Assembly (NCBI GenBank): GCA_964587045.1
Contig: CAZPJY010000005.1
Coordinates: 183 to 64,182, forward strand
Origin: an uncultured Methanosarcinales archaeon
GTDB lineage: Archaea; Nanobdellota; Nanobdellia; Woesearchaeales; CAZPJY01
Direction of reading: 5' to 3'
Length of the DNA stretch: 64,000 nucleotides
The translations under genes and the position numbers were made by a program. This document shows, one piece after another, positions 6,155 to 62,759 of this stretch. The notes under the pieces are model-generated. The model saw nothing but the letters and a program-made list of their open reading frames with translations. It was not told where the DNA came from and ran no database searches. Positions within the stretch are counted from its first letter, which is position 1; every line of letters begins with the position of its first letter.

Positions 6155-6177
6155 GGCAATTAATCGGTGCAGAGGAC

Positions 6178-6672: not shown

Positions 6673-6702
6673 GATGAATGAAATGTCTAGAAAGAATAAA
6701 AA

Positions 6703-15764: not shown

Positions 15765-17741
15765 TTATTCTCTTTTTCCACTATGGTTACTATTGAGTCT
15801 TATCAGAGCCTCTTCTAGGCGTTTAGACTTATCTTCTTTTGAATAGTAATTCAGTTTTCCAAGCGCGTCGATGCAGTTATCTATGCACTCCCAAGCTAGG
15901 CAGTCGTAGCCTTCCTTACCGAGACGGAGATACCAGTCTCTGAAGCTGGCGTGGTGAGCCAGTGATTTATGGACAGCAGCAGTATAATATCCTATAATCA
16001 GCTTGTCATCAATCTTGATCTTCTGTATATTCGCATCGGAGGCGAGCGCGTTTGTAAGGCTAATGATTCGGTCTAGGGTTTCCTCCCTGTCGAATTCGAA
16101 CCTTCCCATTTCAAGAGCTGTTGCGATATCCATAACGAATGGCGAGTTCCTAAGCTCCTCGAAATCCAGGACCTCAACTCTCCCGTCGTAGAATATCATG
16201 TTCTTCAGCGAATTGTCCTTATAGAAGTCCGGCGGCAGCTTGGCGATGTTTAGGGCCAGGGAAGGGTAGTTGCTTTCAATTGCCCGCACAAGTTTATTTA
16301 GGCCGTCTCGGCTATAGAAGCTGGCAGAAGCTGAATTGCCCTTTACCTTTGTCAGCAAGCCGATGGATGCTCCGAAGGCGTTTTCTACATGGTTGCTAGG
16401 ATGCACATCGTAAAGGAGGTCCTTGCATGAGTGCATGCCTACTGTCCTGACCTGAGCAAGTGTCTGGACAATCAGCTCAATAAGGTCATCGAACGGCATT
16501 TTTAAGTCCCTCCTCTGGATTAGGCAGTCGAGCATGTTGTTTCCGGTTATCCTTCCCAGGATGAGCGTGTCGGCTTTGGGGATGTAAGCGTGGTGGTCCA
16601 CGGTCTTGAGGGCAAGCCCGAGCTCCGCAGATGCCTTGTGGAACCTCAAAATCGCCTCGGATTCCTTCTGAAGCGCTTCGCTGTGGGACTTTGGAACCCT
16701 CTTGAAGATATACAGGTTAGGCATGTTGGTGTTCTCGAAGCTTGCCTCTGCCACCTGGAACTTGGCGTGGTCGATCAGCTTGAATCGCTCCTGGGGGATT
16801 ATGGACAAGGCGCGCTTCCAGTAATCTTTTGGCTGGTTCATGTGGGGGAGGCCCAGGCTCGCGAGACTCGCAAGGTTGCCCAACGCAAGCACTGAGGATT
16901 CCAAGTCGTTCCCTATCGCGTTCTTGAATCCCTTCAGGGCCTGCTCGTACTCTTCCAGTTCCATCTCGCACGCTCCCAGGTTGTTCCAGGTGTGAGGCTG
17001 AGGGTCAAGGTGGAGTGACCTCAAGTAGGCATCTTTTGCCTTTCTGAATGCGGATTGGGAGAACCACTTGTTGCCTATGCTGTACACGATACTTGCCAGG
17101 CCACGCTTCTCCTGTCTTTTCAGCCGGCCGATGGAAGAAGCTTCCGTTACCAGCTGCTCCAACCCTTGCGTTGTATCATCCTGGAGAGCTTTCTTGTACC
17201 TGTCCAAGAAGTCAGTTTCGCTGCCATATGTGGTACATTTCTCTTTGTCCTCACCGATGACCTCAAGGCTGGCCTTGAGGTACTTCTTCCTGTACCTCTC
17301 TCTCCCGCTCAGCTTCCATAGTTGGTAGAGTATGGCTGGATTTCCCTTGTCCTTCCGTGATGCCCTCCTGTATAGGGCAAATGCGCGTTCTGGCTCATCC
17401 TCTTTGATCAGGTTGGCCAGGTTGTGCATGGCCTGCGGATATCCCCTTCTTGAAGCGTGCTCAAAATGCGCTCTCGCCGCAGAGGGATTGCTGTTCAGCT
17501 CGATTACTCCCAGGAAGTTCGATGCTGCGGCGTCGCGTGTCTTGGACTCCATCGCAGAGGAAAAGTATCCCTTGGCCTTCTCCATGTTACCTTGTAGGTA
17601 ATTGAGCACTCCGAGGAGGTAGTTGACCTCGCCCCACTTCTTGGAACCCTTCGTTAGCGAGGCTAGCGATATCTCGTATTGGCGCGCGGCATCTGCGTAT
17701 TCGCCTTTCCTCCAGTGCTCTTCTGCTATTCTAGATTCCAT
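15765..17741 (-). CDS. Sel1/TPR-repeat protein fused to an APH/choline-kinase-like phosphotransferase domain
   Basis: Sel1-like repeats (RRGYPQAMHNLANL) N-terminal; C-terminal HSCKDLLYDVHPSNHV (HxDxxxxN catalytic loop), VLDFEEL (D[FW]E) and FVMDIATAL, as in aminoglycoside phosphotransferases. Confidence 0.6.
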   Translation of the reverse strand: MESRIAEEHWRKGEYADAARQYEISLASLTKGSKKWGEVNYLLGVLNYLQGNMEKAKGYFSSAMESKTRDAAASNFLGVIELNSNPSAARAHFEHASRRGYPQAMHNLANLIKEDEPERAFALYRRASRKDKGNPAILYQLWKLSGRERYRKKYLKASLEVIGEDKEKCTTYGSETDFLDRYKKALQDDTTQGLEQLVTEASSIGRLKRQEKRGLASIVYSIGNKWFSQSAFRKAKDAYLRSLHLDPQPHTWNNLGACEMELEEYEQALKGFKNAIGNDLESSVLALGNLASLASLGLPHMNQPKDYWKRALSIIPQERFKLIDHAKFQVAEASFENTNMPNLYIFKRVPKSHSEALQKESEAILRFHKASAELGLALKTVDHHAYIPKADTLILGRITGNNMLDCLIQRRDLKMPFDDLIELIVQTLAQVRTVGMHSCKDLLYDVHPSNHVENAFGASIGLLTKVKGNSASASFYSRDGLNKLVRAIESNYPSLALNIAKLPPDFYKDNSLKNMIFYDGRVEVLDFEELRNSPFVMDIATALEMGRFEFDREETLDRIISLTNALASDANIQKIKIDDKLIIGYYTAAVHKSLAHHASFRDWYLRLGKEGYDCLAWECIDNCIDALGKLNYYSKEDKSKRLEEALIRLNSNHSGKRE

Positions 17742-23406: not shown

Positions 23407-23646
23407 ATGGATCTTGAGGACCTTACCTCAGAAACGCTGGACGGGAAGCCGGAAAGGATAGAGTTAGACATGTCAGGCAAGATACTCCTGAGGGCTTTTG
23501 AGATCAGGAGCATAGTAAGTCTGGCAATGAAGGCAAGCGCATATGGCGGCAAGGTTTACCTACTCAATGCTTCAAGGCATCTAAGGCAAGAACTCAGGTA
23601 CTGCGCTGTCGACAGCCTCATCAGTTACCGAGCGTCGCGAGGGTGA
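23407..23646 (+). CDS. STAS-domain-like small protein (anti-sigma-antagonist fold candidate)
   Basis: 79 aa, pattern IELDMSGKILLRAFEIRSIVSLAMKASAYGGKVYLLNAS resembles SpoIIAA/STAS; GGAGGGG SD. Confidence 0.35.
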   Translation: MDLEDLTSETLDGKPERIELDMSGKILLRAFEIRSIVSLAMKASAYGGKVYLLNASRHLRQELRYCAVDSLISYRASRG

Positions 23647-24997
23647 AGAGTTCCTCGAATGGGTCATGGCATTTTTTTATTTTTTCCTTTATTTTCCCGT
23701 ATGCCAGGAGATTGCCGTGGCCGTGGGATATGGTCAAAGCGTTGATTATGGGCGGAACGAAGATGGTTCCGATGCCCATCGACATCAGGTAGAACAGCCA
23801 AGGAGCGCCGAGGAAGGCGAGATGGCTTCCCCAAGTGTGGGTGAGAGCCTCGCGGAACGCGTGGCCGTTGAGGTTCTCTTTTAGGTAGAGCGCGGTTGCG
23901 ATAATGCTCTTTTGGAACGGGTCGGAAAGCGCTTTTCCCCTGATGAGGTCCTGGATGCTCTGATCCCGGAAATATATCTCCGAGATGAAGTTGGGCTTTT
24001 TCTCTTCGTACAGGCGGTCGCTTTTAATGAGGTGCATCATGGTCTCATAGACCTTGTTTGGGTTGTTGCAATAATCATTGTAGATTGGAGACTCAGGAGT
24101 CAGCAGCTCGTAGAAGCATGAATAATAAAGTGCGTGCCTGAGATGGTGGACCTTGACACGGCTTCCGAGTATTGGTGCTGCCGCAACAGACCTCGGCATG
24201 AAGATGGCTATCTCCTCAGGGTTCTCGATGCCTGACTCCTTTGGTCCGTACTGGGTGAGATCTACCAGGAAATCGATTGCCGGCCACAGGATATCACCTA
24301 TATCCAGGAGGGGTATCGGGTTGCGCTTGTACCTCTCACCTATAGTACGCACGGCTCCTGTCTTCAGGTAGCGCGCGAAAAACACTCCCACGAGAGGTTG
24401 TTCCTTGGTCTTGTAGAATTTGAGGTGCTTGCTCACTCTGGCCTCCAGTATTGAGGCGGCCTCAGGGCTCAGCTTGAGCTGCTTGACCCAAGGTCTTACG
24501 GCCTTGGATATGTGCTTGGCCTCGATTTCGGCATTCCTGTACCTCATCATCTCGAAGACGTACCTCGTCATAATTTTGTGCAGCACTTTGGGGTCGAGCT
24601 CTGCTGGCCTTTGGGTCTTTCGCCTGTAGTCGATCTCATCGATCTTGAGGTCGATGGAGTTGCCGATCATATCACCATCCATCCTGTATTCCTTGATGTT
24701 GATCCTGTCGATTCGCTTGGTTACCTTCCTTGGAAGCTTCCTGTAAACCCCTGATATGAGGCTGTTGTATATGGAGGAACTTTCTATGAGCCTCTTATAG
24801 TGCTCGAATGTGTGCATGACAGAATGGTAGACCCTGAAGTAGTCCTGAGCGTAGATGACAAGGAGGTTTACGGCTTTCGGTTCCACCTTGGTCCTCATGA
24901 GAGCTTTTGACTTTATCTGGCTCTTTGAGAACCTTGGGCCAACGCTGTATTCCTTACCCTTGTAAATCAATGATTCGAGAGTGACCCGTTCGTCCAT
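23621..24997 (-). CDS. large hypothetical protein
   Basis: 458-aa ORF, hydrophobic C-terminal segment; no recognised motifs. Confidence 0.5.
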   Translation of the reverse strand: MDERVTLESLIYKGKEYSVGPRFSKSQIKSKALMRTKVEPKAVNLLVIYAQDYFRVYHSVMHTFEHYKRLIESSSIYNSLISGVYRKLPRKVTKRIDRINIKEYRMDGDMIGNSIDLKIDEIDYRRKTQRPAELDPKVLHKIMTRYVFEMMRYRNAEIEAKHISKAVRPWVKQLKLSPEAASILEARVSKHLKFYKTKEQPLVGVFFARYLKTGAVRTIGERYKRNPIPLLDIGDILWPAIDFLVDLTQYGPKESGIENPEEIAIFMPRSVAAAPILGSRVKVHHLRHALYYSCFYELLTPESPIYNDYCNNPNKVYETMMHLIKSDRLYEEKKPNFISEIYFRDQSIQDLIRGKALSDPFQKSIIATALYLKENLNGHAFREALTHTWGSHLAFLGAPWLFYLMSMGIGTIFVPPIINALTISHGHGNLLAYGKIKEKIKKCHDPFEELFTLATLGN

Positions 24998-29600: not shown

Positions 29601-29807
29601 TTACCTGTCGGAGATGTGCACGTAGCATCCGTCCGGTTCCCAGTATTTGTCCAGCCTGGGTATTTGATGCATGCCCTTGCATCTTGAGACATAGAAAGGA
29701 CCTGGATCCCACCTGGTGGTCGGCTCAACTTTTATGTCAGAAACAGCTGCTGCCAGCCACCCGGCGGCGAGGATCGCTGCAAGGTGCCTGGCTCTCATCC
29801 TCACCAC
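29601..29807 (-). CDS. small secreted Cys-containing protein
   Basis: HLAAILAAGWLAAAVS signal-like; 68 aa. Confidence 0.3.
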   Translation of the reverse strand: MVRMRARHLAAILAAGWLAAAVSDIKVEPTTRWDPGPFYVSRCKGMHQIPRLDKYWEPDGCYVHISDR

Positions 29808-31054
29808 TTGAAGTTGGCGAGCGCGTACTCTTGGGTATTGTCCTCGATGTGCTGCCAGGGGTCCTCCTCTACCGCGAGGGCGACCTTTTCATTGGTGCCG
29901 GGCACTGTGCACGTGTCGCAGAATCCCTCTATCAGCGCTGGCGACTCGAGGATGTTGTACTGCGTGTTGCACTGAGGGCACTTGCCTGACAGGAGCTTCA
30001 CGTACTGGTCGAATATTGACAGCTTGTGGTCGATGACCTTGTTCCGGAGGAAGGCGTTCTTGAAACCCCACTTGGCCAGCTTGAAGACTTGGGCCTGGGA
30101 GAATCCGAGGTGCCTCATCAGTATCATGTACTCCTTGGTCATGCTGGTGTCTGACACGGTCCGGTTGTCCGTGTTGATGTTGAGGCGCAGGTTGTATTCG
30201 AAGTACTGCCTGACAGGATGCGTATCATAGGTGTCGACCACGCCGGTGTCGACGTTGCTGCTGATGCAGATTTCCAAGGGCTTCCTTATCTCGTCGAGGT
30301 AGTCGAAAATGTTGTCGCCCTGCGTCAGCGCCCTGCCGTGGCCGATGCGGTCAGCCCTCAGGTGGCGGACCGCCTTGTCTATGCTCTCGACCCCTCCCTC
30401 CTCGCCCGCGTGGATGGTTATGGGCATCCAGCAGTCGAAGACTGGCTCGATGTCTTCCTTGTAGTTCTTGTGGTCGGTGCCCTTCTCCTGCCCCGCCAGG
30501 TCGAAGCCAACGACGCCGCGTCCGCGGTAGAGCGCGGCGGCTTCGGCTGCGCGTCTTATCAGCTCGGGGTGGTTCCTGTGTCCGCATATGATGAGGCCTG
30601 TGATGACGCCGAAGTTCCTTGCCGCGTCCTTCAGTCCTGCGAGAGACGGCTCGATTATCTGGTGCATCTTGAGCCCGTGCGTGAGGTAGTTGGTTGGGGC
30701 GAAGCGAAGCTCCATTATCTCGACCCGCTCGTTCCACGCGTCCTCGACTATCTCATATGCGACGCGGTAGAAAGCCTCAGGCGTCCGTAGGACTGATTCG
30801 GTCAGGTCGAATAGCTTGAGGTAGTTTTCGAGCGACTTGTTCTCCTGGTGCTTGAACTGGATGTGCTCGAGAATCTCGTTTTCGTCATATGTGGGTAGCT
30901 TGATCTTGTAGTCCTTGGCGAGCTCGACTAGTGTGCCCGGCCGGATGGACCCGCCCATGTGGCAGTGTAGGTCTGTCTTGGGCATCTCCTGCAGCCACTT
31001 GGGCACTTCGTATTCCTTGTCATCTATCGTGACGCTTCGGATGAGGTTTCTCAT
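29801..31054 (-). CDS. add: adenosine/AMP deaminase-family protein with C-terminal Cys4 zinc-ribbon
   Basis: DLHCHMGGS (HxH), ITIHAGE, NINTDN (SLNTDD-like); C-terminal CPQCN...CDTC. Confidence 0.7.
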   Translation of the reverse strand: MRNLIRSVTIDDKEYEVPKWLQEMPKTDLHCHMGGSIRPGTLVELAKDYKIKLPTYDENEILEHIQFKHQENKSLENYLKLFDLTESVLRTPEAFYRVAYEIVEDAWNERVEIMELRFAPTNYLTHGLKMHQIIEPSLAGLKDAARNFGVITGLIICGHRNHPELIRRAAEAAALYRGRGVVGFDLAGQEKGTDHKNYKEDIEPVFDCWMPITIHAGEEGGVESIDKAVRHLRADRIGHGRALTQGDNIFDYLDEIRKPLEICISSNVDTGVVDTYDTHPVRQYFEYNLRLNINTDNRTVSDTSMTKEYMILMRHLGFSQAQVFKLAKWGFKNAFLRNKVIDHKLSIFDQYVKLLSGKCPQCNTQYNILESPALIEGFCDTCTVPGTNEKVALAVEEDPWQHIEDNTQEYALANFKW

Positions 31055-31157: not shown

Positions 31158-32381
31158 ATGGGAAGCCTACTTAGAAAGCTCCTCAAAGGCACAGCATACG
31201 CCCTGGGAGGCCTCATGCTATGGTCTGCGGCCAATATGGGTTTCAATAACACGTTACAAACCTACTACAGTCTCAAGCCAGACCAGACCCGTGAGAGTTA
31301 CAAGCAGAGATACGGCCATTCCATCAGCGGCTACGAACCGTATCTGGGCAAGGACCGCTGGGAGGTCCCAAACATAGTAAGCATTATCGAACGCGAAAGC
31401 CTGGAGGGCGGGCTGAATCTCAAATCCCTCCGTTATGAGCCCAGCAACTTCTTGAAGAAGAATTTATTGGAGCAGCTCTCATTCATTTTTACCGGTGGTT
31501 ACGAAGGTTACGCGATAGGTAGTCACATCACCCTAACAGAGGACGCAAGTTACGAGACCGTAACCCATGAGCTCAAGCACAACAAGACCTACCAAGTCCT
31601 CAAGCAGCATCCTGAATTCAAGGAGAGGTGGGAGAGAATCGCACAGGACTCCACCGGAAAGACAGGTTACGTCCCATGGGTCAAATACGGACTCTCCAAC
31701 CTGAGGCTGGTCGGAAACCTTTTCTGCAATTCCAAAGGAGCATCCTTTAAGGATGGGTACGTCAGCGGGTACGCGCGGACGAACTTCTACGAGGATGTCG
31801 CAGAACTCGCGACCGAAATAGAAGACCATAGGATTATGGGCTGGTTCCAGTTTGAATTCTTCTCATTCGTGATGGATTCAAGCGACAGCAACTCCAAGCT
31901 CCGGGCCAAGATGGACCTCCTCATTGAGTACGGACTAGTGCCTCCTGAGACCTTCGAGTTCTACCAGATCAAGCAGACCTTCTGGGATGGCATCGAAATG
32001 CGCAGCGTCAGCAGGGAGAAAGGAGAACGCTTTTTGAAGGAGAGCGAAGAGTTCCTGGAAAAGCACCCCCGCAGCACCTTCGCCCAGACCGTGCACTCAG
32101 GAAGGGCGTGGGTGATCTCCGAGCTATTGATCGGCGAAAACCCTTACCAAGACGCGCTCGAGGAGTGCAAGAAGGCCGTCAAATACCCTGTCGCCGACAT
32201 AACAGAATACCCTTGCATTCTAGACCGGATGCATGACCTGTACCTTCGATTGGGCGATCCCGAAAAAGCGGGTGTCATGAAAGAGGCGATTAAGAGATAT
32301 GAAAACATGGACGATAAGGTGGAGATGGTGACAGACGGGGCCAACCGATTCCTCGCCGAGAAGGGAATACTGGAGAGATAA
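31158..32381 (+). CDS. membrane-anchored HExxH protein (putative zinc metallopeptidase-like), paralogue 1
   Basis: N-terminal TM; THELKHNKTYQVLKQHPEFKERW; C-terminal ...FLAEKGILER. Confidence 0.5.
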   Translation: MGSLLRKLLKGTAYALGGLMLWSAANMGFNNTLQTYYSLKPDQTRESYKQRYGHSISGYEPYLGKDRWEVPNIVSIIERESLEGGLNLKSLRYEPSNFLKKNLLEQLSFIFTGGYEGYAIGSHITLTEDASYETVTHELKHNKTYQVLKQHPEFKERWERIAQDSTGKTGYVPWVKYGLSNLRLVGNLFCNSKGASFKDGYVSGYARTNFYEDVAELATEIEDHRIMGWFQFEFFSFVMDSSDSNSKLRAKMDLLIEYGLVPPETFEFYQIKQTFWDGIEMRSVSREKGERFLKESEEFLEKHPRSTFAQTVHSGRAWVISELLIGENPYQDALEECKKAVKYPVADITEYPCILDRMHDLYLRLGDPEKAGVMKEAIKRYENMDDKVEMVTDGANRFLAEKGILER

Positions 32382-33616
32382 TGATGGGGACTGTATTTAA
32401 GGTATTGGATAAAACGCTAACCGCTGTAGTTGGCGCAGGCATGACCATCAGTTTGATAGGCAGCATAAACTATTATGTCAACACCGGCCACGAGTCTGCC
32501 ATGCGAACCGAGTACGAAAGGAGGCTCAAAACCAAGGTGGAGGCGTATGAGGAGCACTTCGAGGGCGATAAGTACAACCTAATAACCCTGACCAATGTGA
32601 TCGCCGAAGAGCAGCTCGAGCGGCCATTCGAACTCGAGCTTAGGTTGATCCCTGACGATTTCCTAAAAGCTCACGTCATCGACCAGTTGGACAAAATAAT
32701 CGGAACGAAAAAATCAGGGACGTATAATGGAGGCAACCACGTAGCCATGCCCCAAGATGTCTTCATGTCAGCCCTTCACCACGAGATAAAGCACCTGAAG
32801 ACCAAACAGGTGGTAAAAGAGCATCCCGAATTCAAGGAGAGATGGTTGGAGCTCACTGTCGACGAAGATGGCAAGTCGCTCTACTACGGGGATGGCTACA
32901 ACTTCAAGCAAAAATTCGTTTTCCTGCATAAGTTTCGGGAGGATTATGATTATGAAAAGAACCTGGAGCTGGGTTTCACATCTGACCATGGCAGGGAAAT
33001 ATTCGATGAGGATGTCGCAGAATTATGCGAAGATATAGAAACGAGTTTTTGGGTCACTACTGAACTGCCCTTTGACGATTTCCTTACAGATTCGACCAAG
33101 GACACGAGGAGGATAAGGCAAAAAATCGGGCTGGCTGAGGAATACGGCCTCGTTCCCAGCGGCTTTATTGAGTATGTGAACCTCAAGAAGCAAACCTCCG
33201 CCATATGGGAGGTTCCTGATTGGAAACCCAATCTCAAAAATTCCCGAGCCGAGCGGTACTTGGAGATGACCGACAAATTCATCAGCGAACATCCGCAGAA
33301 CCCCTACTTAAACGAGCTGAGGATGAGACGCGCTACAGTGCACTTCAACCTTGAGATATACGACAAAGCGGAAAGATACATCAAGGCCATACGCGAATAT
33401 GAGGCATGCCTGACCAGTCCGTACAAAAACTATGAAATTATGCAGTCTGTGTTGCACGAACTCTCGAAGTCCTACATGTACCTTGGCGACGAACGGAAGT
33501 CGGAGATCTACAATGAGGCGGCAAACATGTATGACACCTATGACAATATACTCAAACTTGTGCTGGACGGTCCGCTGCCTTTCCTCGCCGAGAAGGGCAT
33601 AGTGCTCGAAAGATAA
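32381..33616 (+). CDS. membrane-anchored HExxH protein, paralogue 2 (tandem duplicate)
   Basis: HHEIKHLKTKQVVKEHPEFKERW; same C-terminal ...FLAEKGIVLER; TAATG overlap with paralogue 1. Confidence 0.5.
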   Translation: MMGTVFKVLDKTLTAVVGAGMTISLIGSINYYVNTGHESAMRTEYERRLKTKVEAYEEHFEGDKYNLITLTNVIAEEQLERPFELELRLIPDDFLKAHVIDQLDKIIGTKKSGTYNGGNHVAMPQDVFMSALHHEIKHLKTKQVVKEHPEFKERWLELTVDEDGKSLYYGDGYNFKQKFVFLHKFREDYDYEKNLELGFTSDHGREIFDEDVAELCEDIETSFWVTTELPFDDFLTDSTKDTRRIRQKIGLAEEYGLVPSGFIEYVNLKKQTSAIWEVPDWKPNLKNSRAERYLEMTDKFISEHPQNPYLNELRMRRATVHFNLEIYDKAERYIKAIREYEACLTSPYKNYEIMQSVLHELSKSYMYLGDERKSEIYNEAANMYDTYDNILKLVLDGPLPFLAEKGIVLER

Positions 33617-47536: not shown

Positions 47537-48589
47537 ATGCTACAATCATTCGACGAGGCAAGAAGGCTCTCAGACAGCTATGAGATCCCCTTATCCGACA
47601 TCCTATGTACAGACCTGAATATCACAGGGATAAGCCTGGCAAACCCCAAAGCCATGCAAAGGACCCGCTTCTCGATGAACCTCGATAACGAAAACTTATT
47701 CTTCGCAGTGACTGTAAACAGGAGGAGCGACTACAAGCACACAGGCGACTCAGTCTGGTTCAAGGAGATATTACTTGGGATGGCTAGCGACCCTGAGAAC
47801 GACACCTGCGACGACACATATTTCCGCAAGTCAGGCAAGGTGCTGACCCTGAACTCCAACAAGAAGAGCGCATGTTCGGGTTGTAAGTTCTGTGGTACCT
47901 ACAACCTCGACAAGGCAGAAGAACCGCTGACTACCAAGCCAGCGCTCACAAGAAAGATAGAGAGTCTGCTTTCAGAGAGCCGCAAGGATAACATGTCTGA
48001 TCTGGAAGCGATTGGTGTGGTCACGGGATGTTTCCCTGGCGAAGAAGAGGCTGTAGAACACCTCCTCATGGTCAGGGACGCCTTTGAGCCTTTCGGCTTC
48101 AAAGGTGAAGTGATTTACATAGGATCCCAGATAAGGAGAGAGGAATCGTTGGACGCCCTTGTTTCATCAGGACCCTTCGGTCTCTATCTCACTGTGGAAT
48201 GTTTCACGAGGAGGGAGCAGCTGATGAATCCTAAGAAAGCATCGCTTACCCTTGAGAGAGGGCGTGAGCTCCTGGATCTTGCGAAGGGCAAGGGTATCAA
48301 TACAACTTTCCTCTATATACTCGGACTCGACCCCATCGAATCTATCTTCGACGAGATTCCCGAGTACCTTCCAGTAGTCACCAGGCACCCAATAATAAAT
48401 GTCATGCAGGCCTACGTGCCGGAGCAGGAGGCGCTCCGCCATCCCTCTGCGACGAAGATTGAGTACTACCTGGAATCGAGGGGGCTTATCGAGATACTCT
48501 TCTGCAGCTCGAGCCTAGTCCCCAGGAGATGGGAAAACTACCGCAGTCCGTGGGTCACTAAATATGGAGGTAGGGTCCTTGATATATAA
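47537..48589 (+). CDS. radical SAM-like (TIM-barrel-type) protein with Cx2Cx2C motif
   Basis: NKKSACSGCKFCGTYN; downstream pattern GEVIYIGSQIRREESLDALVSSGPFGLYLTVECF...GINTTFLYILGLDP resembles radical-SAM barrel strands. Confidence 0.45.
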   Translation: MLQSFDEARRLSDSYEIPLSDILCTDLNITGISLANPKAMQRTRFSMNLDNENLFFAVTVNRRSDYKHTGDSVWFKEILLGMASDPENDTCDDTYFRKSGKVLTLNSNKKSACSGCKFCGTYNLDKAEEPLTTKPALTRKIESLLSESRKDNMSDLEAIGVVTGCFPGEEEAVEHLLMVRDAFEPFGFKGEVIYIGSQIRREESLDALVSSGPFGLYLTVECFTRREQLMNPKKASLTLERGRELLDLAKGKGINTTFLYILGLDPIESIFDEIPEYLPVVTRHPIINVMQAYVPEQEALRHPSATKIEYYLESRGLIEILFCSSSLVPRRWENYRSPWVTKYGGRVLDI

Positions 48590-49745
48590 CACGGTCAGCG
48601 ATGAGGTAGATCTGTCATCTAGATATGCCTGCGAGGTGCTAAAGGAGAACGGGGTCGACTTCGCAAGCGGGGTGCCTTGCGGTGTTCTCCGGCACTTCAT
48701 CTCGTACTTTGAAGCTGATGCGCAGATGCAACTCCTCCCTGCACAGAACGAACCAGAGGCGGTAGGCATCGCAGCAGGAGCCTACCTAGGAGGCAAGACT
48801 CCTCTGCTTTACATGCAGAATTCAGGAATGCTCAAAGCTACCAACGAGTTTGGTTCCCTGCTGATACCATATAAGATACCTGTGGTTTCAGTCGTGACCT
48901 TCAGGGGATGCGAAGGCGAGGATGCTCCACAACACTTCACAACTGGCGGGATAACAGTGTCACTCCTCGACGCACTCGGTATATACCACAGCGAGCTTGA
49001 AGAGGATTTAATCAGGGAGACTATCGGTGATGTCATGGATTGGAGCAGGTCGAACAGCATGCCCTCAGTCCTGCTGATCAAGAGAGGCTGGTCGTCAAAA
49101 AAGGAGGAATCGGACAGCAAGGAGCACGAGCAGGACGAGCTCGAGAGTCAGCCCACGCAGACCAAGGATTACCGAAACGGCAAGTCCTCAATGAAAAGGG
49201 AGGATGCTCTTGATGTCATCGCCCGATCCACAGGTGCGGATACTGCAGTCTTCGGCACCACTGGTCTGATTAGCCGCTCGCTCTACGAGAGGCATGACAG
49301 CCCCAACTTCTTTTACAATACAGGGGGCTTTGGTTTGGTGTCCTCGATTGGGCTGGGATTCGCCAACGCGCAACCCTCAACGCGGGTAATCATCGTCGAC
49401 GGGGATGCGAGCTTGCTGACGAATCTCAATACCCTGGTCACCATCGGTTGCAACAAGCCATCCAACCTCGTCCATGTCGTCTTAGACAACAAGGCCTACG
49501 CGTCGTGCTCTGAAGAGGGATCATGCTCACGTCAGGTCGACCTGTCATCCTTTGCTGAGGTGGCTGGCTATAAATCTATCTTTCGGGTCGACGATACGCA
49601 GTGTCTGGCGCGAGCCATGACCGAAGGCAGCGGGCCGAAGTTCGTGCACGCCGAGATTGGGCTGGGCGGAAGGAGGGATTTTGCCAGACCCAAAGACCTG
49701 GCGCATATCGCTCGCAGGTTCAAAGGGCATTTCAGCAACCAATAA
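48564..49745 (+). CDS. fused sulfopyruvate/phosphonopyruvate decarboxylase-like ThDP enzyme (ComDE/Ppd family)
   Basis: N-terminal GVDFASGVPCGVL (ComD-like), C-terminal ThDP motif IVDGDASLLTNLNTLVTIG. Confidence 0.7.
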   Translation: MEVGSLIYNTVSDEVDLSSRYACEVLKENGVDFASGVPCGVLRHFISYFEADAQMQLLPAQNEPEAVGIAAGAYLGGKTPLLYMQNSGMLKATNEFGSLLIPYKIPVVSVVTFRGCEGEDAPQHFTTGGITVSLLDALGIYHSELEEDLIRETIGDVMDWSRSNSMPSVLLIKRGWSSKKEESDSKEHEQDELESQPTQTKDYRNGKSSMKREDALDVIARSTGADTAVFGTTGLISRSLYERHDSPNFFYNTGGFGLVSSIGLGFANAQPSTRVIIVDGDASLLTNLNTLVTIGCNKPSNLVHVVLDNKAYASCSEEGSCSRQVDLSSFAEVAGYKSIFRVDDTQCLARAMTEGSGPKFVHAEIGLGGRRDFARPKDLAHIARRFKGHFSNQ

Positions 49746-49771
49746 ATAGGTGCGGGACCTACCTCCATTCC

Positions 49772-50425
49772 ATGGCCGGATGGGACAGGATCTACAAGGA
49801 GAAGGGGACATCTTACGACTATTACGACATAGTCGGGACGCCGCACGAGTCGATGCCCAAAGTCGCGGCATTCCTCAAGAAGAGCAAGGCCAGGAGGGTG
49901 CTCGACCTCGGATGCGGAGCGGGAAGGAACCTGATCTATCTCGCAGGGAGGGGCTTCGAAGCCTATGGGGTTGACAAGGCGCCTGAAGGCATCAAGATCG
50001 CCAGGAGGGCATTGTCCGAACGGGGTCTCAGGGCCGGGCTTAAGGTCGCCGACATGTTCGAGCGCCTCCCCTACCCTGACGGATTCTTCGACGCGGTCGT
50101 GGCAGTCCAGGTGCTGCAGCACGGCACCGAGGCCAGGATCAGGAAGGCCATCGCCGAGCTGGGGAGGGTGCTGAAGCCGGGAGGCGTGCTCTTCGCAACT
50201 CTGTCAGGCAGGGTCGCCAACGGCAAGACAAGGTACTGCCTGGTCAAGACCGCAAGGCGCGTGGCGCCCAACACGTTCGTCCCGCGGAAGGGAAGCGAAG
50301 CCGGGGTGACGCACTTCATCTACAGCAGGGAGAGGATCAAAAAACATTACAGGGACTTCCGAATAACCAATATCTGGCGCGACAGCAAGGGGTACTACTG
50401 CTTCCTGGGCGTCATGAAATCATAA
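49772..50425 (+). CDS. class I SAM-dependent methyltransferase
   Basis: RVLDLGCGAGRN motif I, VVAVQVLQH, LKPGGVLF; start by codon arithmetic (49601+171). Confidence 0.8.
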   Translation: MAGWDRIYKEKGTSYDYYDIVGTPHESMPKVAAFLKKSKARRVLDLGCGAGRNLIYLAGRGFEAYGVDKAPEGIKIARRALSERGLRAGLKVADMFERLPYPDGFFDAVVAVQVLQHGTEARIRKAIAELGRVLKPGGVLFATLSGRVANGKTRYCLVKTARRVAPNTFVPRKGSEAGVTHFIYSRERIKKHYRDFRITNIWRDSKGYYCFLGVMKS

Positions 50426-50470: not shown

Positions 50471-51442
50471 ATGAAGCTGGGCAAGCTTCCGATAAACCTG
50501 CTGGAGGAGGAGCTTAGGAAGATCAAGATCCACCACGACGACGTGATCCTGGGCCCGAAGGTCGGCGAGGACAACGCTATTATCGACTTGGGGGACCGCT
50601 ACATGGTGGTCGCATCGGACCCGATAACCGCAGCGGCAGAAAACATCGGCTACTTTGCGGTGCACATCAACGCAAACGACATAGCTGTGGCAGGGGCTAA
50701 GCCCGCTTACATGGCGGCAGACATACTCCTGCCGGAGCACGCCGACGCGGAAATGGCGAGGGAGGTGTTCTCGCAGCTGCGCAACGCCTGCGATGATATA
50801 GGGGTGTCGCTCGTCACAGGCCACACCGAAAAGTCGCCGGGGCTCAAGAATATCATAATCGCATCGACCATGTTCGGGTTCGTGCCAGTGTACATGCAGG
50901 TGACCACCGGCGGCGCGGAGGAGTTCGACGACATACTGGTCACCAAGTCTGCAGGCCTCGAGGGAACTGCTATAATAGCGAGCGACTTCGCAGAGAGGCT
51001 CGGCTTCCTCTCAAAGGACGAGATCGAAGAGGCGAAGGGGTACCTGAAAAGTTTTTCAGTGCTCCCCGAGGCGCGCATCGCGGCCGACTACGGGGTGACA
51101 TCCATGCACGACCCTACAGAGGGCGGCATCGCGAACGCGCTGCACGAGCTTTACCGCGCATCAGGCGTCGGCGTGTGGGCGCTGCTCGACCTCGTGCCTG
51201 TCACGCCCTTGACTGAAAAGATCTGCAGCCACCTCGAAATCAACCCTTACGGCCTGCTGTCATCAGGCATGCTCCTTGCGACCTGCGAGCCGTCCAAGAC
51301 CAAGAGCCTGAGGGCCGCTTGGAAGGATGCGGGGATAGAATCGACTGTCATCGGCCACATGGAACAGGGAGGGGTGCGTCAGCCCCACGGCAGGAAGCTG
51401 CCCTACTTCCGAAGCGACGAGCTGTGCAGGCTCTTCGAATAA
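50471..51442 (+). CDS. AIR-synthase-related (PurM/HypE/SelD-like) ATP-dependent enzyme
   Basis: GPKVGEDNAIIDL, VVASDPITAA, VSLVTGHTE; 323 aa. Confidence 0.7.
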   Translation: MKLGKLPINLLEEELRKIKIHHDDVILGPKVGEDNAIIDLGDRYMVVASDPITAAAENIGYFAVHINANDIAVAGAKPAYMAADILLPEHADAEMAREVFSQLRNACDDIGVSLVTGHTEKSPGLKNIIIASTMFGFVPVYMQVTTGGAEEFDDILVTKSAGLEGTAIIASDFAERLGFLSKDEIEEAKGYLKSFSVLPEARIAADYGVTSMHDPTEGGIANALHELYRASGVGVWALLDLVPVTPLTEKICSHLEINPYGLLSSGMLLATCEPSKTKSLRAAWKDAGIESTVIGHMEQGGVRQPHGRKLPYFRSDELCRLFE

Positions 51443-54375: not shown

Positions 54376-55794
54376 TCACTTGCGCAGCAGCCACGAGCCG
54401 CGGAACCAGTCCTGCCTCTTGCCGTTAGCGTCGCCGTTGCGGTCGAGGAAAGCGAGTCGGGGCAGCATGGGGCGCATCGAGAACCCCAGCGGGCGGTGAA
54501 CGAGTACCTCGTAGAACAGGCGGCCTTCCTCGACTTTTTCGTGGTTACCGATGTCGCGCACCCGTGGTAGTAGCACGGCCGTCGAGAGCACTCGCAGGCA
54601 TGAGGATATGGCGAGGATGATGAGCAGCGTCCACAGCGCGCTGGTGCGGCCCTGCAGTAGCAAGGACAGCCCGCTTCCGGTAAGGCCGCCCACCATGACC
54701 GCGAATCCGAAAGTGACTGCGTAGTTGGCGAAAAGCTTGGTGCGGGTGCGCTTGCTCGACGCCTCGAGCATGTAGTTGAAGGTGGTAAGCTCCAGGCCCG
54801 CCCAGGCGAAGCCACTGATAGTCTCAGCAGCAGCGAGCACGAGGAAAGCCGCGATGCCTGAAAGCGACGATGCGATTACGACCCAGTATAAAGGTATCAG
54901 CGAGACAATGACTGACGATACCTTGAGAAGGTTCTTGTTGCCGAACACCGAGGTGAGGCTCCCCCAGTAAGTCATGGTCAGTGCCTTGATCAGCACGGGG
55001 ATCAGCACGACGATGCTGTACTGCAGGTATGAGAACCTGAGGTGGGTGAGCATGATGATGGCGAAGAACGGGGCTGAGACCATCACAGCGAAGGCGAGCA
55101 CCGAGCGGAACAGGGCGAAGCTCCCGAAGGCGGTCTTGGGCAGCTCGGCGATGAACTCCCGGAAGCCTGAGTGGTTGTAGACGTCTGGCAGGAAGGGGGG
55201 CTCGTAGTGGCGGGTGAACAGCAGGAAGGATACGAACCTGCCGGTGAGGGCGAGCAGGAAGAGGATGCCGAACGCCACCCACACATCTGGCACGAAGGTG
55301 AGGATGAAGCCGCTTGCGATAATCGATGAGAGCAGGAAGAGGAGGGTGACGCGGTTGCGCTTGCCGAAGTACGTACCACGCTCGCCTGCGGGGATAACGT
55401 CGCCGATCCACGACGACCACGGCGGGCCGGCGATGTTGCCGAAGACGAGGTAGAGCGAGAATATACAGGTGAGCGCCCACACGCTTCTCGTGAATAGCGG
55501 CAGGAGGAAGAGGGGCGCAAACGACAGTGATTGCAGCAGCACGAAGATGAGCACCAGCTTCTTCCGCTCCTGCAGCTTCTCTGTCAGGCGCGCGCCGAGC
55601 AGCTGGAAGAGTGAGCCCAGGAAGAACGGTCCTGATGAGAGGAAGGCGATCTCGGCGTTGCTCGCGCCGAGCCGCAGGGCGAAGGGGACCACGTACTGCT
55701 CGCCGCACCCCATCATCACGGAGGCGGCGCTGCCCTCAGCGACCGAGCATCGTTTGGTGCGTTGAACCTCCTCCCTTGTAAGCTCTCTCCTCAT
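54376..55794 (-). CDS. MFS transporter
   Basis: 12-TM-like hydrophobic profile, 472 aa, typical MFS loops (GKRNRV, GRTSA). Confidence 0.8.
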   Translation of the reverse strand: MRRELTREEVQRTKRCSVAEGSAASVMMGCGEQYVVPFALRLGASNAEIAFLSSGPFFLGSLFQLLGARLTEKLQERKKLVLIFVLLQSLSFAPLFLLPLFTRSVWALTCIFSLYLVFGNIAGPPWSSWIGDVIPAGERGTYFGKRNRVTLLFLLSSIIASGFILTFVPDVWVAFGILFLLALTGRFVSFLLFTRHYEPPFLPDVYNHSGFREFIAELPKTAFGSFALFRSVLAFAVMVSAPFFAIIMLTHLRFSYLQYSIVVLIPVLIKALTMTYWGSLTSVFGNKNLLKVSSVIVSLIPLYWVVIASSLSGIAAFLVLAAAETISGFAWAGLELTTFNYMLEASSKRTRTKLFANYAVTFGFAVMVGGLTGSGLSLLLQGRTSALWTLLIILAISSCLRVLSTAVLLPRVRDIGNHEKVEEGRLFYEVLVHRPLGFSMRPMLPRLAFLDRNGDANGKRQDWFRGSWLLRK

Positions 55795-55835
55795 GGTCCC
55801 GACGAGATGGTGAAGTGGTTAATATTGCTTTCGGG

Positions 55836-57947
55836 TCACTCTTTCATGGAGGCCGGTCTCCTGCGCGCGACCGCTGCCGGCTGCTCGAGACTGATGCCTG
55901 AGCGCTGCGCTGCCGCGTTCAGTACGGCAAGGATGATGTCTTCGTAGCTCATGCCTGCGGAAAAGCAGGAGCGCGGGAAGCGGGAGTTCTCGAGCGGATC
56001 GGGCATGAGGCCCGGCAGTGCGTTGACCTCGATCACGTTGGGCACGCCTCTCGAGTCCAGACGCATGTCTATCCTGCACAGGTCGCGCATGCCTAGAGTA
56101 TGGAAAGCGCGCATGGCAGTGTCGCGGATGCGCTGCTCTAGCTTCCTATCCAGCCTGGCAGGGCAGACGAGCGGGTCGACTCCTGGCACGTCATACTCCC
56201 ACTTGGCCTCGTAGCTGTCAAACCTGTGCATGCCCTTGGGCAGATGGTCGAACGTCACCTCGACGATGGGCAGGACTTTGGGAGGGTTGCCCAGCATCGG
56301 CACCGTGAACTCGCGGCCCTCGAGGAACTCCTCGACGAGTGCGGGCTGTCTGTAATCGCGTATGACCCCGGCGACCTTGCGCTTGAGCTCCCTTGGGCTG
56401 AAGACGAGCGAGTCGTTCCTGATGCCCTTGCTCGAGCCTTCGGAGTTGGGCTTGACGATCAGCGGGAAGCGCAGCTCTGCGTCGAGCTTGTCGCCTGCTG
56501 AGACAAAGGTCTGGTGCTTAGGGGTCGGGATGCCTGCCTGCGAGAGCACCGAGCTGGTCAGCGCCTTGTCAAGCGTGAGGGCGAGCGCCATCACTCCTGA
56601 ACCTGTGTAGGGGATGCGCAGCATCTCGAGGATCGCCGGCACGTGGCTTTCGCGCGCCTCGCCGTGCAAGCCTTCCGCTAGGTTGAAGGCGATGTCGAAC
56701 GCGCTCTTCCTGAGCCGGTCGTAGATGCGCTCGTCAGCCTCTACCAGCGTGGCTGAGTGGCCGTTCCTATCGAGCGCCTGCTTGATGGCCAGCGGCACCG
56801 AGATGTCGTCGAACTCTGCGTAAGCGTCCTTGGGCATGCCTGCTGGAGCCGCGCGCTTCTCATTGTAGATGATCGCCACTTTCAGCCCTGACGGGCTTCT
56901 CTTCCTCGGGTTGGCGTACTCGACCCTCCTTCCCTCGAAGTTCCTGAGCACGAATTTCCGCTCGTCCTTTGCGGTCACGAACTCTGGCAGGATGGGGATC
57001 TTTCCACCGCCAGGAGCGTCGATTACGTACTGCGGGATCGCGAGGCCTGATGTGAAGCCGTAGAGATCCTCCATTATCTTGAGCCCATCCTGGACCGACG
57101 TCCTGAAGTGCTCCGTGCCTTTGACCTGGTCTGCCTGGTAGAGGTAGTAAGGCCGGACCCTGTTCATGAGCAGGCGGTGGAACAGCTCCTTGAGCACCTC
57201 GGCGTCGTCGTTGACGCCTTTAAGCAGCACCGACTGGTTGCCCAGTGGTAGTCCCGCGTCTGCGAGCAGCTCAAGCGCCCCCTGGCTCTCGGGAGTGAGC
57301 TCGCGCGGGTGCTCGAAGTGGACGTTGACGTAGAGCGGCCTGTACCTGGCAAGCATCGATGCGAGCTTCTCGGTTACGCGCATGGGGAAGGTGCAAGGCA
57401 CCCTCGTCCCGATACGGATGATCTGCAGGTGCGGGATGGCGCGCAGGCGTTTTAGGATGGACTCGATCTCGCTGTCGGAGAGCATGAGCGGGTCGCCGCC
57501 TGAGAGTATGACGTCCCTCACCTCAGGGTGGGCTGCGACGTAGTCTATCGCGTCCTGGATGTGCGCCGGGGTGATCTCGACCTCGCGTCCGACCTTTCGC
57601 TTGCGCGTGCAGAACCTGCAGTACACCGCGCACCTGTTGGAGACGAGCATCAGCACGCGGTCTGGGTAGCGGTGCACCAGGAACGGCACTGGGGTGTACT
57701 GCTCCTCGAGCAGGGGGTCCTCGTCGTTCTCATTGTCGTTGAGCTCCTCGGGGTCTGGTATGCACTGCTTCCAGATGGGGTCGCCCTTCTCCCTGATCAG
57801 GCCCTTGTAGTACTCGGTCACCCTTACGGGGTAGACTCGGGTCACCTCTTTTTTAGAAAGCGCGATTTGTATCACCTGTTTAGTATGAGAAGAAGGTTGG
57901 AAGGTCACATCCGCCGCGGGGCGTCCAGTGGCCTTGCGGGATTCCAC
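55836..57947 (-). CDS. fusion of lysine 2,3-aminomutase-family radical SAM enzyme (KamA-like) with a D-Ala-D-Ala-ligase-type ATP-grasp domain
   Basis: VHRYPDRVLMLVSNRCAVYCRFCTRKRKVG (CxxxCxxC, KamA signature context); C-terminal half with ATP-grasp motifs ...EEFLEGREFTVPML...IEVNALPGL. Confidence 0.8.
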   Translation of the reverse strand: MESRKATGRPAADVTFQPSSHTKQVIQIALSKKEVTRVYPVRVTEYYKGLIREKGDPIWKQCIPDPEELNDNENDEDPLLEEQYTPVPFLVHRYPDRVLMLVSNRCAVYCRFCTRKRKVGREVEITPAHIQDAIDYVAAHPEVRDVILSGGDPLMLSDSEIESILKRLRAIPHLQIIRIGTRVPCTFPMRVTEKLASMLARYRPLYVNVHFEHPRELTPESQGALELLADAGLPLGNQSVLLKGVNDDAEVLKELFHRLLMNRVRPYYLYQADQVKGTEHFRTSVQDGLKIMEDLYGFTSGLAIPQYVIDAPGGGKIPILPEFVTAKDERKFVLRNFEGRRVEYANPRKRSPSGLKVAIIYNEKRAAPAGMPKDAYAEFDDISVPLAIKQALDRNGHSATLVEADERIYDRLRKSAFDIAFNLAEGLHGEARESHVPAILEMLRIPYTGSGVMALALTLDKALTSSVLSQAGIPTPKHQTFVSAGDKLDAELRFPLIVKPNSEGSSKGIRNDSLVFSPRELKRKVAGVIRDYRQPALVEEFLEGREFTVPMLGNPPKVLPIVEVTFDHLPKGMHRFDSYEAKWEYDVPGVDPLVCPARLDRKLEQRIRDTAMRAFHTLGMRDLCRIDMRLDSRGVPNVIEVNALPGLMPDPLENSRFPRSCFSAGMSYEDIILAVLNAAAQRSGISLEQPAAVARRRPASMKE

Positions 57948-58094
57948 TTGCCGGCCTTACCATCGTATCGTCAGCTGGGGATCCCTTGAGACACTTTTTT
58001 GCGTGTCGTCATCAGACTAATCCGGAACCGGAATGCGCGCTTGGTATTTAATCCTATTCTTTTTGCGTCGGGTTCGTCTCTTGAAAGGAGTGGC

Positions 58095-62216: not shown

Positions 62217-62759
62217 ATGCCCCGCTCTCCCATGTTCGAGCTAAAGGGCGAGAGGGTGAAGCTTCGCAGGCTGCGCAGGTCGGATGCCTCTTCGATGGCG
62301 AGGCACGCGCACGACAAGGCCATATCCAGGTACACCACCCTCCCCTACCCGTACAGGCTGGAGGGCGCTTACGAGTTCATCAAGCTGAGCCAGGCGCACT
62401 TCAGGAAGAAGGAGGCGTACGAGCTGGGCATAGTCGTGGACGGGAACGTCGTTGGGACGATGAGCCTGTTCAACATCGACCGCAAGAACGGTAAGGCGGA
62501 GATGGGCTACTGGATAGGCAGGGAGTTCTGGGGCAGGGGGCTGGTCACCGAGGCCGCCCGTCTCATCATGCGCTTCGGCTTCGAGGAAGTGGGTCTGGAG
62601 AGGATCTTTGCGCTGGTCATGCATCCCAACCGCGCTTCTTCTAAAGTTCTGGAGAGGCTCGGCTTTTCGTATGAGGGCAGGCTCAGGAAGGACGCCCTGC
62701 AGAACGGCAGGCGGATGGACCACCTCGTGTACGGGATGCTCGCAGAAGAGTTCAAGTGA
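62217..62759 (+). CDS. GNAT family N-acetyltransferase (RimJ/RimL-like)
   Basis: MGYWIGREFWGRGLVTEAARLIMRFGFEEVGLERI. Confidence 0.8.
   Translation: MPRSPMFELKGERVKLRRLRRSDASSMARHAHDKAISRYTTLPYPYRLEGAYEFIKLSQAHFRKKEAYELGIVVDGNVVGTMSLFNIDRKNGKAEMGYWIGREFWGRGLVTEAARLIMRFGFEEVGLERIFALVMHPNRASSKVLERLGFSYEGRLRKDALQNGRRMDHLVYGMLAEEFK

Follow-up and report, generated by a model that had tools for sequence, protein, structure and literature searches.

A predicted beta-lysine-forming aminomutase fused to a Ddl-fold ATP-grasp ligase is the core of a module found in Archaea and Bacteria

Introduction

Microbial beta-lysine chemistry is known mainly from lysine fermentation, osmoprotection by N-epsilon-acetyl-beta-lysine, modification of elongation factor P (EF-P) and a few antibiotics. 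In methanogens, AblA and AblB reportedly make N-epsilon-acetyl-beta-lysine as a compatible solute, and in pyrrolysine biosynthesis the radical S-adenosylmethionine (SAM) enzyme PylB is said to rearrange lysine, after which the ATP-grasp enzyme PylC joins the rearranged amino acid to the epsilon-amine of lysine. There are two further precedents: N-acetylglutaminylglutamine amide (NAGGN) is made by Ngg, a protein that combines an acetyltransferase with a peptide ligase, together with the amidotransferase AsnO (PMC8070244), and the negamycin cluster co-localizes beta-lysine formation with an ATP-grasp ligase (bioRxiv 10.1101/2025.05.27.656397). Here we describe a gene in a 64-kb stretch of contig CAZPJY010000005.1 (hereafter the window), from an uncultured archaeon placed in the Woesearchaeales, that encodes a KamA-type lysine 2,3-aminomutase (LAM) domain and a Ddl-fold ATP-grasp ligase domain in a single polypeptide.

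Our reading of this gene, to which we assign a probability of about 0.6, is that it encodes a bifunctional enzyme which would convert lysine to beta-lysine and then ligate it, at the expense of ATP, to a second substrate, and that the same pair of activities would form the core of a module found in many other lineages.

Results

One uninterrupted gene encodes both enzymes

The gene and its two domains, the second of which we call GRASP-A, are positioned as follows.

55836..57947, minus strand: KamA-type aminomutase / Ddl-fold ATP-grasp ligase fusion gene, a stop-free 703-aa open reading frame (ORF) with a GTG start at 57947 (domain matches, homologue alignment, AlphaFold model)
56892..57845, minus strand: KamA (lysine 2,3-aminomutase-like) domain, residues about 35-352 (2A5H match, TIGR00238, residue mapping)
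55884..56882, minus strand: GRASP-A, three-subdomain Ddl-fold ATP-grasp ligase domain, residues about 356-688 (Ddl PDB matches, Foldseek, residue mapping, clade A of a neighbour-joining tree)

The 703-aa protein carries the motifs CAVYCRFCTRK (residues 106-116) and EVNALPGL (640-647), and its Pfam domains are Radical_SAM (101-249), LAM_C (292-351) and Dala_Dala_lig_C (468-675). When PDB sequences were searched, residues 40-357 matched the lysine 2,3-aminomutase of Clostridium subterminale (2A5H; E = 7e-104) and residues 388-679 matched many D-Ala-D-Ala ligases (E about 1e-29). An AlphaFold model, built on 61 fused homologues, reached a mean predicted local distance difference test score of 85.6, with disorder limited to residues 1-39 and 689-703; there is no disordered linker between the halves, and aminomutase strand 341-345 leads almost directly into ligase strand 356-361. 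Foldseek paired the N-terminal half with 2A5H at 51% identity and the C-terminal half with whole DdlB chains (target-normalised TM score 0.84-0.85 over about 335 columns).

The 61 full-length fused homologues, 680-740 aa long and independently assembled, align with the window protein end to end. Because more than 60 independently assembled proteins do so, the fusion is not a frameshift or an assembly artefact; it is real, and both halves are complete. The first-pass annotation of the window had described a single 703-aa ORF of exactly this kind and had allowed that a missed stop might divide it into two genes; the frame holds no internal stop, and the domain, structure and homologue comparisons bear the description out. 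The start codon is uncertain, the protein being 703 aa long from the GTG, 669 aa in the NCBI record and 679 aa in the JGI copy; an in-frame TAA lies 12 nt 5' of the GTG at 57947, and sequence conservation in the 61-homologue alignment begins near V35.

The aminomutase half carries a lysine-type active site

We mapped KamA residues onto the numbering of 2A5H over 109 sequences, namely 67 from the cassette loci described below and 42 from loci with KamA only. The window domain contains the CxxxCxxC cluster motif (C106/C110/C113, nt 57609-57632) as well as the SGGDP motif, and the LAM residues C125/C129/C132, R134, SGGD, E236, D293, D330 and K337 correspond to its C106/C110/C113, R115, S149-D152, E216, D273, D310 and K316. 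These active-site residues are invariant in the 67 cassette KamAs (one sequence being gapped at D330 and K337) and in the 42 KamA-only sequences, and C106/C110/C113, R115, D273, D310 and K316 are also invariant in the 61 fused proteins. We take LAM Arg134 (R115 in the window) to bind the substrate alpha-carboxylate and K337 (K316) to be the lysine that holds pyridoxal 5'-phosphate (PLP). D293 and D330 reportedly hold the epsilon-ammonium group of lysine, and glutamate 2,3-aminomutases are said to have Lys and Asn at these positions. Read in this way, the predicted pocket is lysine-type and not glutamate-type, and the domain most likely converts L-lysine to beta-lysine.

The family scores agree with this assignment. 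The KamA half passed the TIGR00238 family model (292.6 bits against a cutoff of 199.2), and among the NCBIfam subfamily models it scored highest with that for the lysine enzyme AblA (433 bits), followed by the glutamate (397), arginine (336) and EpmB (241; cutoff 369) models. The inter-subunit zinc site of Clostridium LAM (C268 with C375/C377/C380) is not kept: C268 is replaced by Asp in the window, and the C-terminal Cys motif (C375/C377) is absent from the window KamA and from all 67 cassette KamAs. In the fusion protein the ligase domain sits where the C-terminal region of LAM would be, and a Ddl-type dimer could plausibly take over the role of that region in oligomerisation.

The ligase half keeps the Ddl catalytic set and alters the substrate site

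Ligases were mapped onto the numbering of E. coli DdlB, whose sequence we verified to be identical to that of 2DLN/1IOV. The comparison includes 68 ligases of the GRASP-A type and 62 of a second, related type found in most of the loci described below, which we call GRASP-B. All nine Ddl catalytic residues (K97, K144, E180, E187, K215, R255, D257, E270 and N272) are present in the window ligase. The equivalents of K97, K144, E187, K215, R255, D257 and N272 are 100% conserved across the 68 GRASP-A and 62 GRASP-B sequences, and those of E180 and E270 are kept in both groups bar a few substitutions by Q or D, so that GRASP-A and GRASP-B should both be active, acyl-phosphate-forming ligases.

The residues of the D-Ala site tell a different story from the catalytic ones. 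In the window ligase, H63 of DdlB is replaced by E425, Y216 by W583 and L282 by R656, while S150 is kept; in addition, R202 has become Glu and M259 Arg. E15 of DdlB is retained as E378, inside an invariant acidic segment, D-x-Y-A-E-F-D (374-380). E425 is nearly invariant in both ligase clades, and D374, D380, E403 and E433 are invariant in the ligase half. A donor pocket this rich in acidic residues would be a good match for an acyl donor with two positive charges, for instance beta-lysine.

With E. coli DdlB as the root, the 130 ligase domains fell into two old paralogue clades in a neighbour-joining tree: clade A (GRASP-A, n = 68), which holds all fused copies including that of the window, and clade B (GRASP-B, n = 62), all of whose members stand alone with respect to KamA. 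The clades differ at the substrate site, clade A keeping S150, G276 and S281, and clade B having A150, D or C at 276, A281, G282 and N274. Position 282, which we take to be a contact site of the incoming nucleophile, is Arg in the clade that holds all fused archaeal proteins and Cys or Asp in the other A subclades. Since this residue varies among subclades, the second substrate, and with it the product, may differ between lineages. We considered whether the residue at 282 is linked to the presence of GRASP-B and rejected this, as it follows the clade.

The ligase family as a whole lies on a long branch away from E. coli DdlB, and the best Ddl subfamily model scores the window ligase at 192.5 against a cutoff of 243, so that it falls below every Ddl cutoff. 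Judged by these scores and residues, the family is not a D-Ala-D-Ala ligase despite the labels that its members carry. Standalone GRASP-A homologues (P0171-P0288) from Woesearchaeota, Aenigmarchaeota, Micrarchaeota, Altiarchaeales and Bathyarchaeia commonly bear the label 'D-alanine--D-alanine ligase', which is probably a systematic misannotation, because these proteins pair with KamA genes and lack the D-Ala-site residues.

KamA and GRASP-A are the invariant core of a widespread module

In a homologue search of a 5.8-billion-protein database we inspected the 120 best clusters, and 99 of these carry KamA and Ddl-C domains in one protein, mostly 680-740 aa long. The fused clusters come from Woesearchaeota/Nanoarchaeota, Thermoplasmatota, Methanocellales and some Spirochaetales and Clostridia, and the best relatives are 60-64% identical to the window protein. 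Their database names are only generic ("KamA family radical SAM protein" or "lysine 2,3-aminomutase"); no specific curated model for the module was found in Pfam or NCBIfam, and no source gave it a specific name.

We also surveyed species-representative genomes and metagenomes by tblastn, ORF calling and clustering, which yielded 74 loci (the window included) from both Archaea and Bacteria in which KamA is linked to a Ddl-like ATP-grasp gene. The two may be fused, adjacent, overlapping or further apart. Their order takes at least three forms, and both domains of life are represented: separate genes run from KamA to ligase in L090-L112 and in L120 (Bathyarchaeia) and from ligase to KamA in L033 (Asgard archaea) and L122, and in Ignavibacteria, Aminicenantes, Desulfuromonadales, Verrucomicrobiota and Rokubacteria they are split by two other cassette genes. 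Unfused KamA and ligase genes also characterise the bacterial loci among L001-L034. Functional coupling is therefore strong, with KamA and GRASP-A fused in 99/120 clusters and adjacent elsewhere in varied gene orders.

One of the other cassette genes is the second ligase, GRASP-B, which is present in 65/74 loci; exactly one clade-A and one clade-B ligase occur together in 59 loci. The third partner of KamA is a small GNAT acetyltransferase of 160-185 aa. The composition of the module across the loci is as follows.

KamA, two ligases and GNAT: 55/74 loci
KamA and two ligases, without GNAT: 10/74 loci
KamA, one ligase and GNAT: 2/74 loci
KamA and one ligase only: 6/74 loci (L001-L003, L033, L111 and the window)
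Ligase only: 1/74 loci (L114, on a 1.2-kb contig)

GRASP-B and GNAT tend to occur, or to be missing, together, which fits the fusion of their genes seen in L008, L087-L089 and L115. KamA and GRASP-A, in turn, are the invariant core of the module. Two further archaeal loci, L120 and L122, likewise show this pair, and neither a second ligase nor a GNAT lies within 5 kb of it. The taxa that carry the module range from genome-reduced DPANN archaea to Bacteroidota, Ignavibacteria and Desulfuromonadales, and the cultured Prolixibacter denitrificans DSM 27267 (L011) has the full cassette, as does L084 of the Methanocellales; Ignavibacterium album is another cultured carrier.

The window carries the core only, as a single polypeptide. 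No second ATP-grasp paralogue was found in its 64 kb (tblastn, E <= 0.01), and no GNAT lies within 3 kb of the fusion gene, though either could be encoded in another part of the genome. The window does hold a GNAT further off, which shares just 23-29% identity with the cassette GNATs and probably does not belong to the system:

62217..62759, plus strand: distant GNAT of the Acetyltransf_3 type, 180 aa, 4.3 kb away (50-60 bits to cassette GNATs by tblastn/blastp; Pfam)

These results modify the earlier interpretation of the gene in several ways. That the pair differs from ablA/ablB holds, the partner of KamA being an ATP-grasp ligase; the picture of a ligase standing in place of an acetyltransferase does not, the conserved partners including both a second Ddl-like ligase and a small GNAT, of which the window keeps a reduced core. 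Formation of a beta-amino acid followed by ATP-dependent ligation is still the most economical reading and is reinforced by the linkage in 73 further loci, while beta-glutamate, offered as an alternative to beta-lysine, falls away with the lysine-type pocket: the comparison of residues that was suggested for telling the two apart found D273, D310 and the PLP lysine invariant. The possibility raised then, that the fusion is a common annotated enzyme with a known product, proved right about its being common (99/120 clusters), and the names attached to it are generic and specify no product.

Additional genes occur in some loci. A soluble family of about 440 aa lies directly after GRASP-B in three of them (L082 10369-11691, L086 10081-11418, L113 3879-5204); its C-terminus is rich in Cys, a PP-loop-like SFGKDS motif is present, and neither Pfam nor NCBIfam gives a match that passes threshold (the only Pfam match being QueC, E = 0.003). 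The protein may serve the module as an amidating or tailoring enzyme that uses ATP. An exporter role for this protein was considered and rejected on its lack of transmembrane segments and its PP-loop-like motif. L113 further contains, inside the KamA/GRASP-A/GRASP-B cluster, a PLP-dependent decarboxylase of the Orn/Arg/diaminopimelate type (5201-6583), a hint of a diamine as a possible substrate of the ligase there.

A separate set of 42 loci, from the survey of genomes, has KamA without ligase and without AblB. These come from Nitrospirota, Desulfobacterota and Poribacteria (L035-L080, for example L050 6395-7804 and 9799-11007), and their KamAs are 52-59% identical, with lysine-type residues. 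We rejected the idea that they are ablA-ablB pairs; their recurrent neighbours are a dCTP-deaminase-like protein, diguanylate cyclases and an uncharacterised protein of about 470-500 aa.

Surroundings of the fusion gene in the window

The features flanking the fusion gene are the following.

54376..55794, minus strand: major facilitator superfamily (MFS) transporter, 472 aa (MFS_1, 63.6 bits against a cutoff of 33.4, E = 2e-17)
55795..55835, minus strand: spacer of 41 nt between the fusion gene and the MFS gene, with a AATATTAA box at 55819-55826
57948..58094, minus strand: intergenic region of 147 nt 5' of the fusion gene, probable promoter region, with an AT-rich TTAAATA box near 58046 and an in-frame TAA
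58095-59816, minus strand: adenine deaminase, upstream of the fusion gene (536 bits against a cutoff of 472.5)

The MFS gene had been proposed to export the product of the fusion protein, and the link turns out to be weak. Its family is small (49 homologues, the named ones mostly from Woesearchaeota/Nanoarchaeota and other DPANN, with a few distant ones from Asgard archaea), its three closest homologues (50-53% identity) lie in unrelated gene contexts, and none of the 116 related loci contains a homologue. The AATATTAA box is centred about 28 nt 5' of the MFS ATG and is compatible with an archaeal TATA box for a leaderless MFS transcript; a bacterial-type promoter and terminator scan, itself uninformative here, found no terminator-like site in the 41-nt spacer. 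It is thus possible either that the MFS gene is co-transcribed with the fusion or that it has its own leaderless promoter. In the window, what speaks for a link is the adjacency of the two genes across the 41-nt gap. A permease does lie directly 3' of three core-only loci, and the three are mutually unrelated (the MFS of the window, a CitMHS protein in L033, an ArsP-type protein in L111); two MFS genes also lie 5' of the module in L083. The case for a transport link of the module is suggestive but weak.

Other neighbours of the fusion gene are a NUDIX protein and an FMN reductase, and no mur genes were seen in the window flanks of the fusion gene. Along the window as a whole, salvage enzymes are scattered, with an adenosine deaminase (29801-31054, minus) and a nicotinate phosphoribosyltransferase (10950-12359, minus) in addition to the adenine deaminase, which fits a scavenging lifestyle. 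A fused alpha/beta thiamine pyrophosphate-dependent decarboxylase (48564-49745, plus) matches the phosphonopyruvate decarboxylase model TIGR03297 at 270 bits, short of the cutoff of 312, and also matches both sulfopyruvate decarboxylase subunits; it adjoins a SAM methyltransferase and an AIR-synthase-related protein (49601-50425, plus, and 50471-51442, plus), and the group could reflect phosphonate or sulfonate chemistry in a DPANN-like archaeon. The G+C content, about 0.49 over the first 6 kb, climbs to 0.60-0.63 at 50-62 kb. NCBIfam has no match for most long ORFs of the window (for example 15765-17741, 23621-24997 and 31158-33616), and searches for tRNA, rRNA and Rfam families gave no match in the 64 kb. 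Judged by the taxonomy of the closest homologues of the fusion protein and of the MFS transporter, the source is most likely a Woesearchaeota-like DPANN archaeon.

Discussion

A proposed sequence of reactions

In the scheme that we favour, the KamA domain, with its [4Fe-4S] cluster, SAM and PLP, would shift the alpha-amino group of L-lysine to C3 to give beta-lysine. GRASP-A would then use ATP to form an acyl-phosphate and, from it, an amide bond between beta-lysine and a second substrate, beta-lysine most likely being the activated carboxylate, held in the unusually acidic donor pocket. GRASP-B and GNAT, where present, would extend and N-acetylate the product to a small beta-lysine-containing pseudopeptide; the archaeon of the window, which has the core only, would make a simpler ligation product, and the adjacent MFS transporter may move product or substrate. 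What the comparisons show is the identity of the domains, the intact catalytic sets, the lysine-type pocket, the repeated fusion and the order-independent linkage in both domains of life. The order of the steps and their consecutive action on one molecule are inferred, as is everything said here of which partner is activated, what the second substrate is, what the product does and whether the MFS transporter takes part.

As to that role, a charge-balanced compatible solute is the guess we favour, tentatively and with the odds against it. It is favoured because the nearest aminomutase relative, AblA, makes the osmolyte N-epsilon-acetyl-beta-lysine; because NAGGN, an N-acetylated dipeptide osmolyte, is built by the same enzyme logic; because the module is compact and spread over many phyla; and because a compound of this kind could be cheap for genome-reduced DPANN cells to produce from lysine that they import. 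A broader conjecture, also short of even odds, is that the core product, extended by GRASP-B and GNAT in most lineages, may be a major solute of the cytoplasm, or a nitrogen-rich metabolite, that has been overlooked in anaerobic archaea (DPANN, Bathyarchaeia, Thermoplasmatota, Methanocellales, Asgard) and in many bacterial phyla, in which case the 'D-Ala-D-Ala ligase' labels in wall-less archaea would mark the pathway. In one locus, L082, genes for MscL, for Na+/H+ and Na+/Ca2+ exchangers and for CorA lie upstream of the module.

Several points weigh against this scheme. The KamA half does not reach the cutoff of the AblA equivalog TIGR03820 (433.4 bits against 525.4, the alignment ending at model position 366/417), nor any other curated equivalog cutoff for any substrate; the AblA cutoff is missed partly because the C-terminal 50 or so residues and the zinc site of canonical LAM are missing. 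The rule by which Asp rather than Lys/Asn would mark a lysine enzyme, here applied to D273 and D310, is a presumed one. Position 282 of the nucleophile site varies between Arg, Cys and Asp. One Aenigmarchaeota locus (L121, on a contig seen in many samples) has GRASP-A (5001-7520 region) without KamA within 5 kb, followed by a 503-aa protein with no Pfam match. The MFS transporter had to be rejected as a conserved component of the module, being absent from the 116 loci and having its nearest homologues elsewhere. No riboswitch or regulatory RNA was found in eight bacterial cassette loci or in the whole window, only tRNAs and tmRNA; the ion and osmotic genes 5' of one locus, L082, are the only contextual hint for a solute role; and a literature search of limited coverage found no paper on the pairing of KamA with a ligase.

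Alternative explanations

The alternative that survives best, though we consider it unlikely, is that the module makes an exported bioactive small molecule, such as a beta-lysine peptide antibiotic, a metallophore or a signal, with GNAT serving in tailoring or self-protection and the permease as exporter. Several antibiotics contain beta-lysine as a building block, and its formation is paired with an ATP-grasp ligase in the negamycin cluster; the two to four genes of the present module, however, form a compact and near-invariant set across many phyla, genome-reduced DPANN included, unlike a specialised-metabolite cluster, and no nonribosomal peptide synthetase, polyketide synthase, regulator or resistance genes accompany them. 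Similarly, the permeases directly 3' of three core-only loci would suit an exporter but are not conserved, most loci having none at all. Tailoring-type genes do occur in some loci (the PP-loop-like protein and the PLP decarboxylase), and one cassette GNAT is faintly similar to streptothricin and aminoglycoside acetyltransferases, yet GNAT scores far below every curated cutoff.

It is improbable, in our view, that the ligase has a macromolecule or envelope component (a protein, a lipid or a cell-wall polymer) as its acceptor for beta-lysine. There is precedent for such a transfer in EpmA/EpmB, which carry beta-lysine to EF-P, but the EpmB model is the lowest-scoring of the KamA subfamilies (241 against a cutoff of 369) and no EpmA-like gene was found among the recurrent neighbour clusters. 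Relatives of Ddl act in cell-wall precursor synthesis, and a transglycosylase and a PMT-like glycosyltransferase adjoin two of the loci; against this, the nearest relatives in sequence and structure are the small-molecule Ddl enzymes and not the protein-modifying RimK or TTL, and no candidate acceptor gene is conserved next to the module.

We give an equally low standing to the idea that the substrate of KamA is a different basic amino acid (arginine or ornithine, for example), which would yield a beta-arginine or beta-ornithine unit. The pair of conserved Asp residues would likewise fit a cationic side chain other than that of lysine, the score with the arginine 2,3-aminomutase model is still 336 bits, no curated equivalog cutoff is reached for any substrate, and L113 contains the Orn/Arg/diaminopimelate-type decarboxylase; on the other hand, the AblA lysine model scores about 97 bits above the arginine model, and the domain is 51% identical to 2A5H with all lysine-contact residues identical.

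That the halves are functionally unrelated, the C-terminal domain being an ordinary D-Ala-D-Ala ligase joined to KamA by chance, is very improbable: the labels of standalone homologues, the Ddl fold and the Ddl catalytic residues would agree with it, but the linkage to KamA is kept in 74 loci of both domains and in several gene orders, the D-Ala-site residues are replaced (H63 by Glu, Y216 by Trp, L282 by Arg), the score of 192.5 misses the cutoff of 243, the family lies far from E. coli DdlB on the tree, and no mur genes were seen near the fusion gene. A genuine Ddl, lysine fermentation and EF-P-type modification were each rejected on scores, residues and context.

Significance

The component families are already known, as is the idea of making beta-lysine and then derivatising it, which ablA/ablB embodies. 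What appears, from comparison of the proteins, to be new is a dedicated Ddl-derived ligase clade, usually as two paralogues, that is hard-wired to KamA. Identification of the product of this beta-lysine ligation would add a metabolite class to the physiology of anaerobes, and it would both explain the "Ddl" genes of wall-less archaea and correct a widespread misannotation. If our reading is true, the single-polypeptide form in the window is the simplest construct with which to work, one protein with lysine in and ligated product out.

Comparison with known systems

The module resembles AblA/AblB in that a KamA-family lysine 2,3-aminomutase is genetically coupled to an enzyme that would derivatise beta-lysine, with AblA as the top NCBIfam model, and in that a GNAT belongs to the full module of most relatives. 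It differs in that the partner fused to KamA is an ATP-grasp ligase and not an acetyltransferase, most relatives having two such ligases; the cassette GNATs are small and do not match the AblB model, no GNAT adjoins the window gene, and the C-terminal zinc-binding region is absent from the cassette KamAs, which accompanies the failure of the window KamA to reach the AblA cutoff.

With DdlB (2DLN) and the Van ligases, GRASP-A shares the whole three-subdomain fold and all of the ATP/Mg2+ and transition-state residues, and its chemistry is probably the same, formation of an acyl-phosphate followed by that of an amide. Unlike them, it has altered substrate-site residues, with L282 replaced by Arg, Cys or Asp, and it occurs in archaea and is linked to KamA, not to mur genes.

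NAGGN offers the likeness of a small N-acetylated dipeptide solute whose synthesis is non-ribosomal and couples a GNAT with a peptide ligase that depends on ATP, a logic that the GRASP-B-GNAT fusions and the PP-loop-like protein of some loci echo. The ligase lineage is Ddl-like here, with no homology-based link to that system, and the building block comes from a radical SAM aminomutase; the window, moreover, has neither GNAT nor a second ligase.

PylB/PylC likewise joins a radical SAM rearrangement of lysine to an ATP-grasp ligation to an amine. PylB is not a KamA-family or PLP enzyme, however, and PylC structures were not among the PDB sequence matches at E <= 1e-5, whereas Ddl structures were.

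The negamycin clusters, by their description, also place a beta-lysine-forming enzyme next to an ATP-grasp enzyme that forms an amide. Theirs is an actinomycete antibiotic cluster with a hydroxylase, a methyltransferase and N-N-forming enzymes, whereas the present module is minimal and extends across many phyla.

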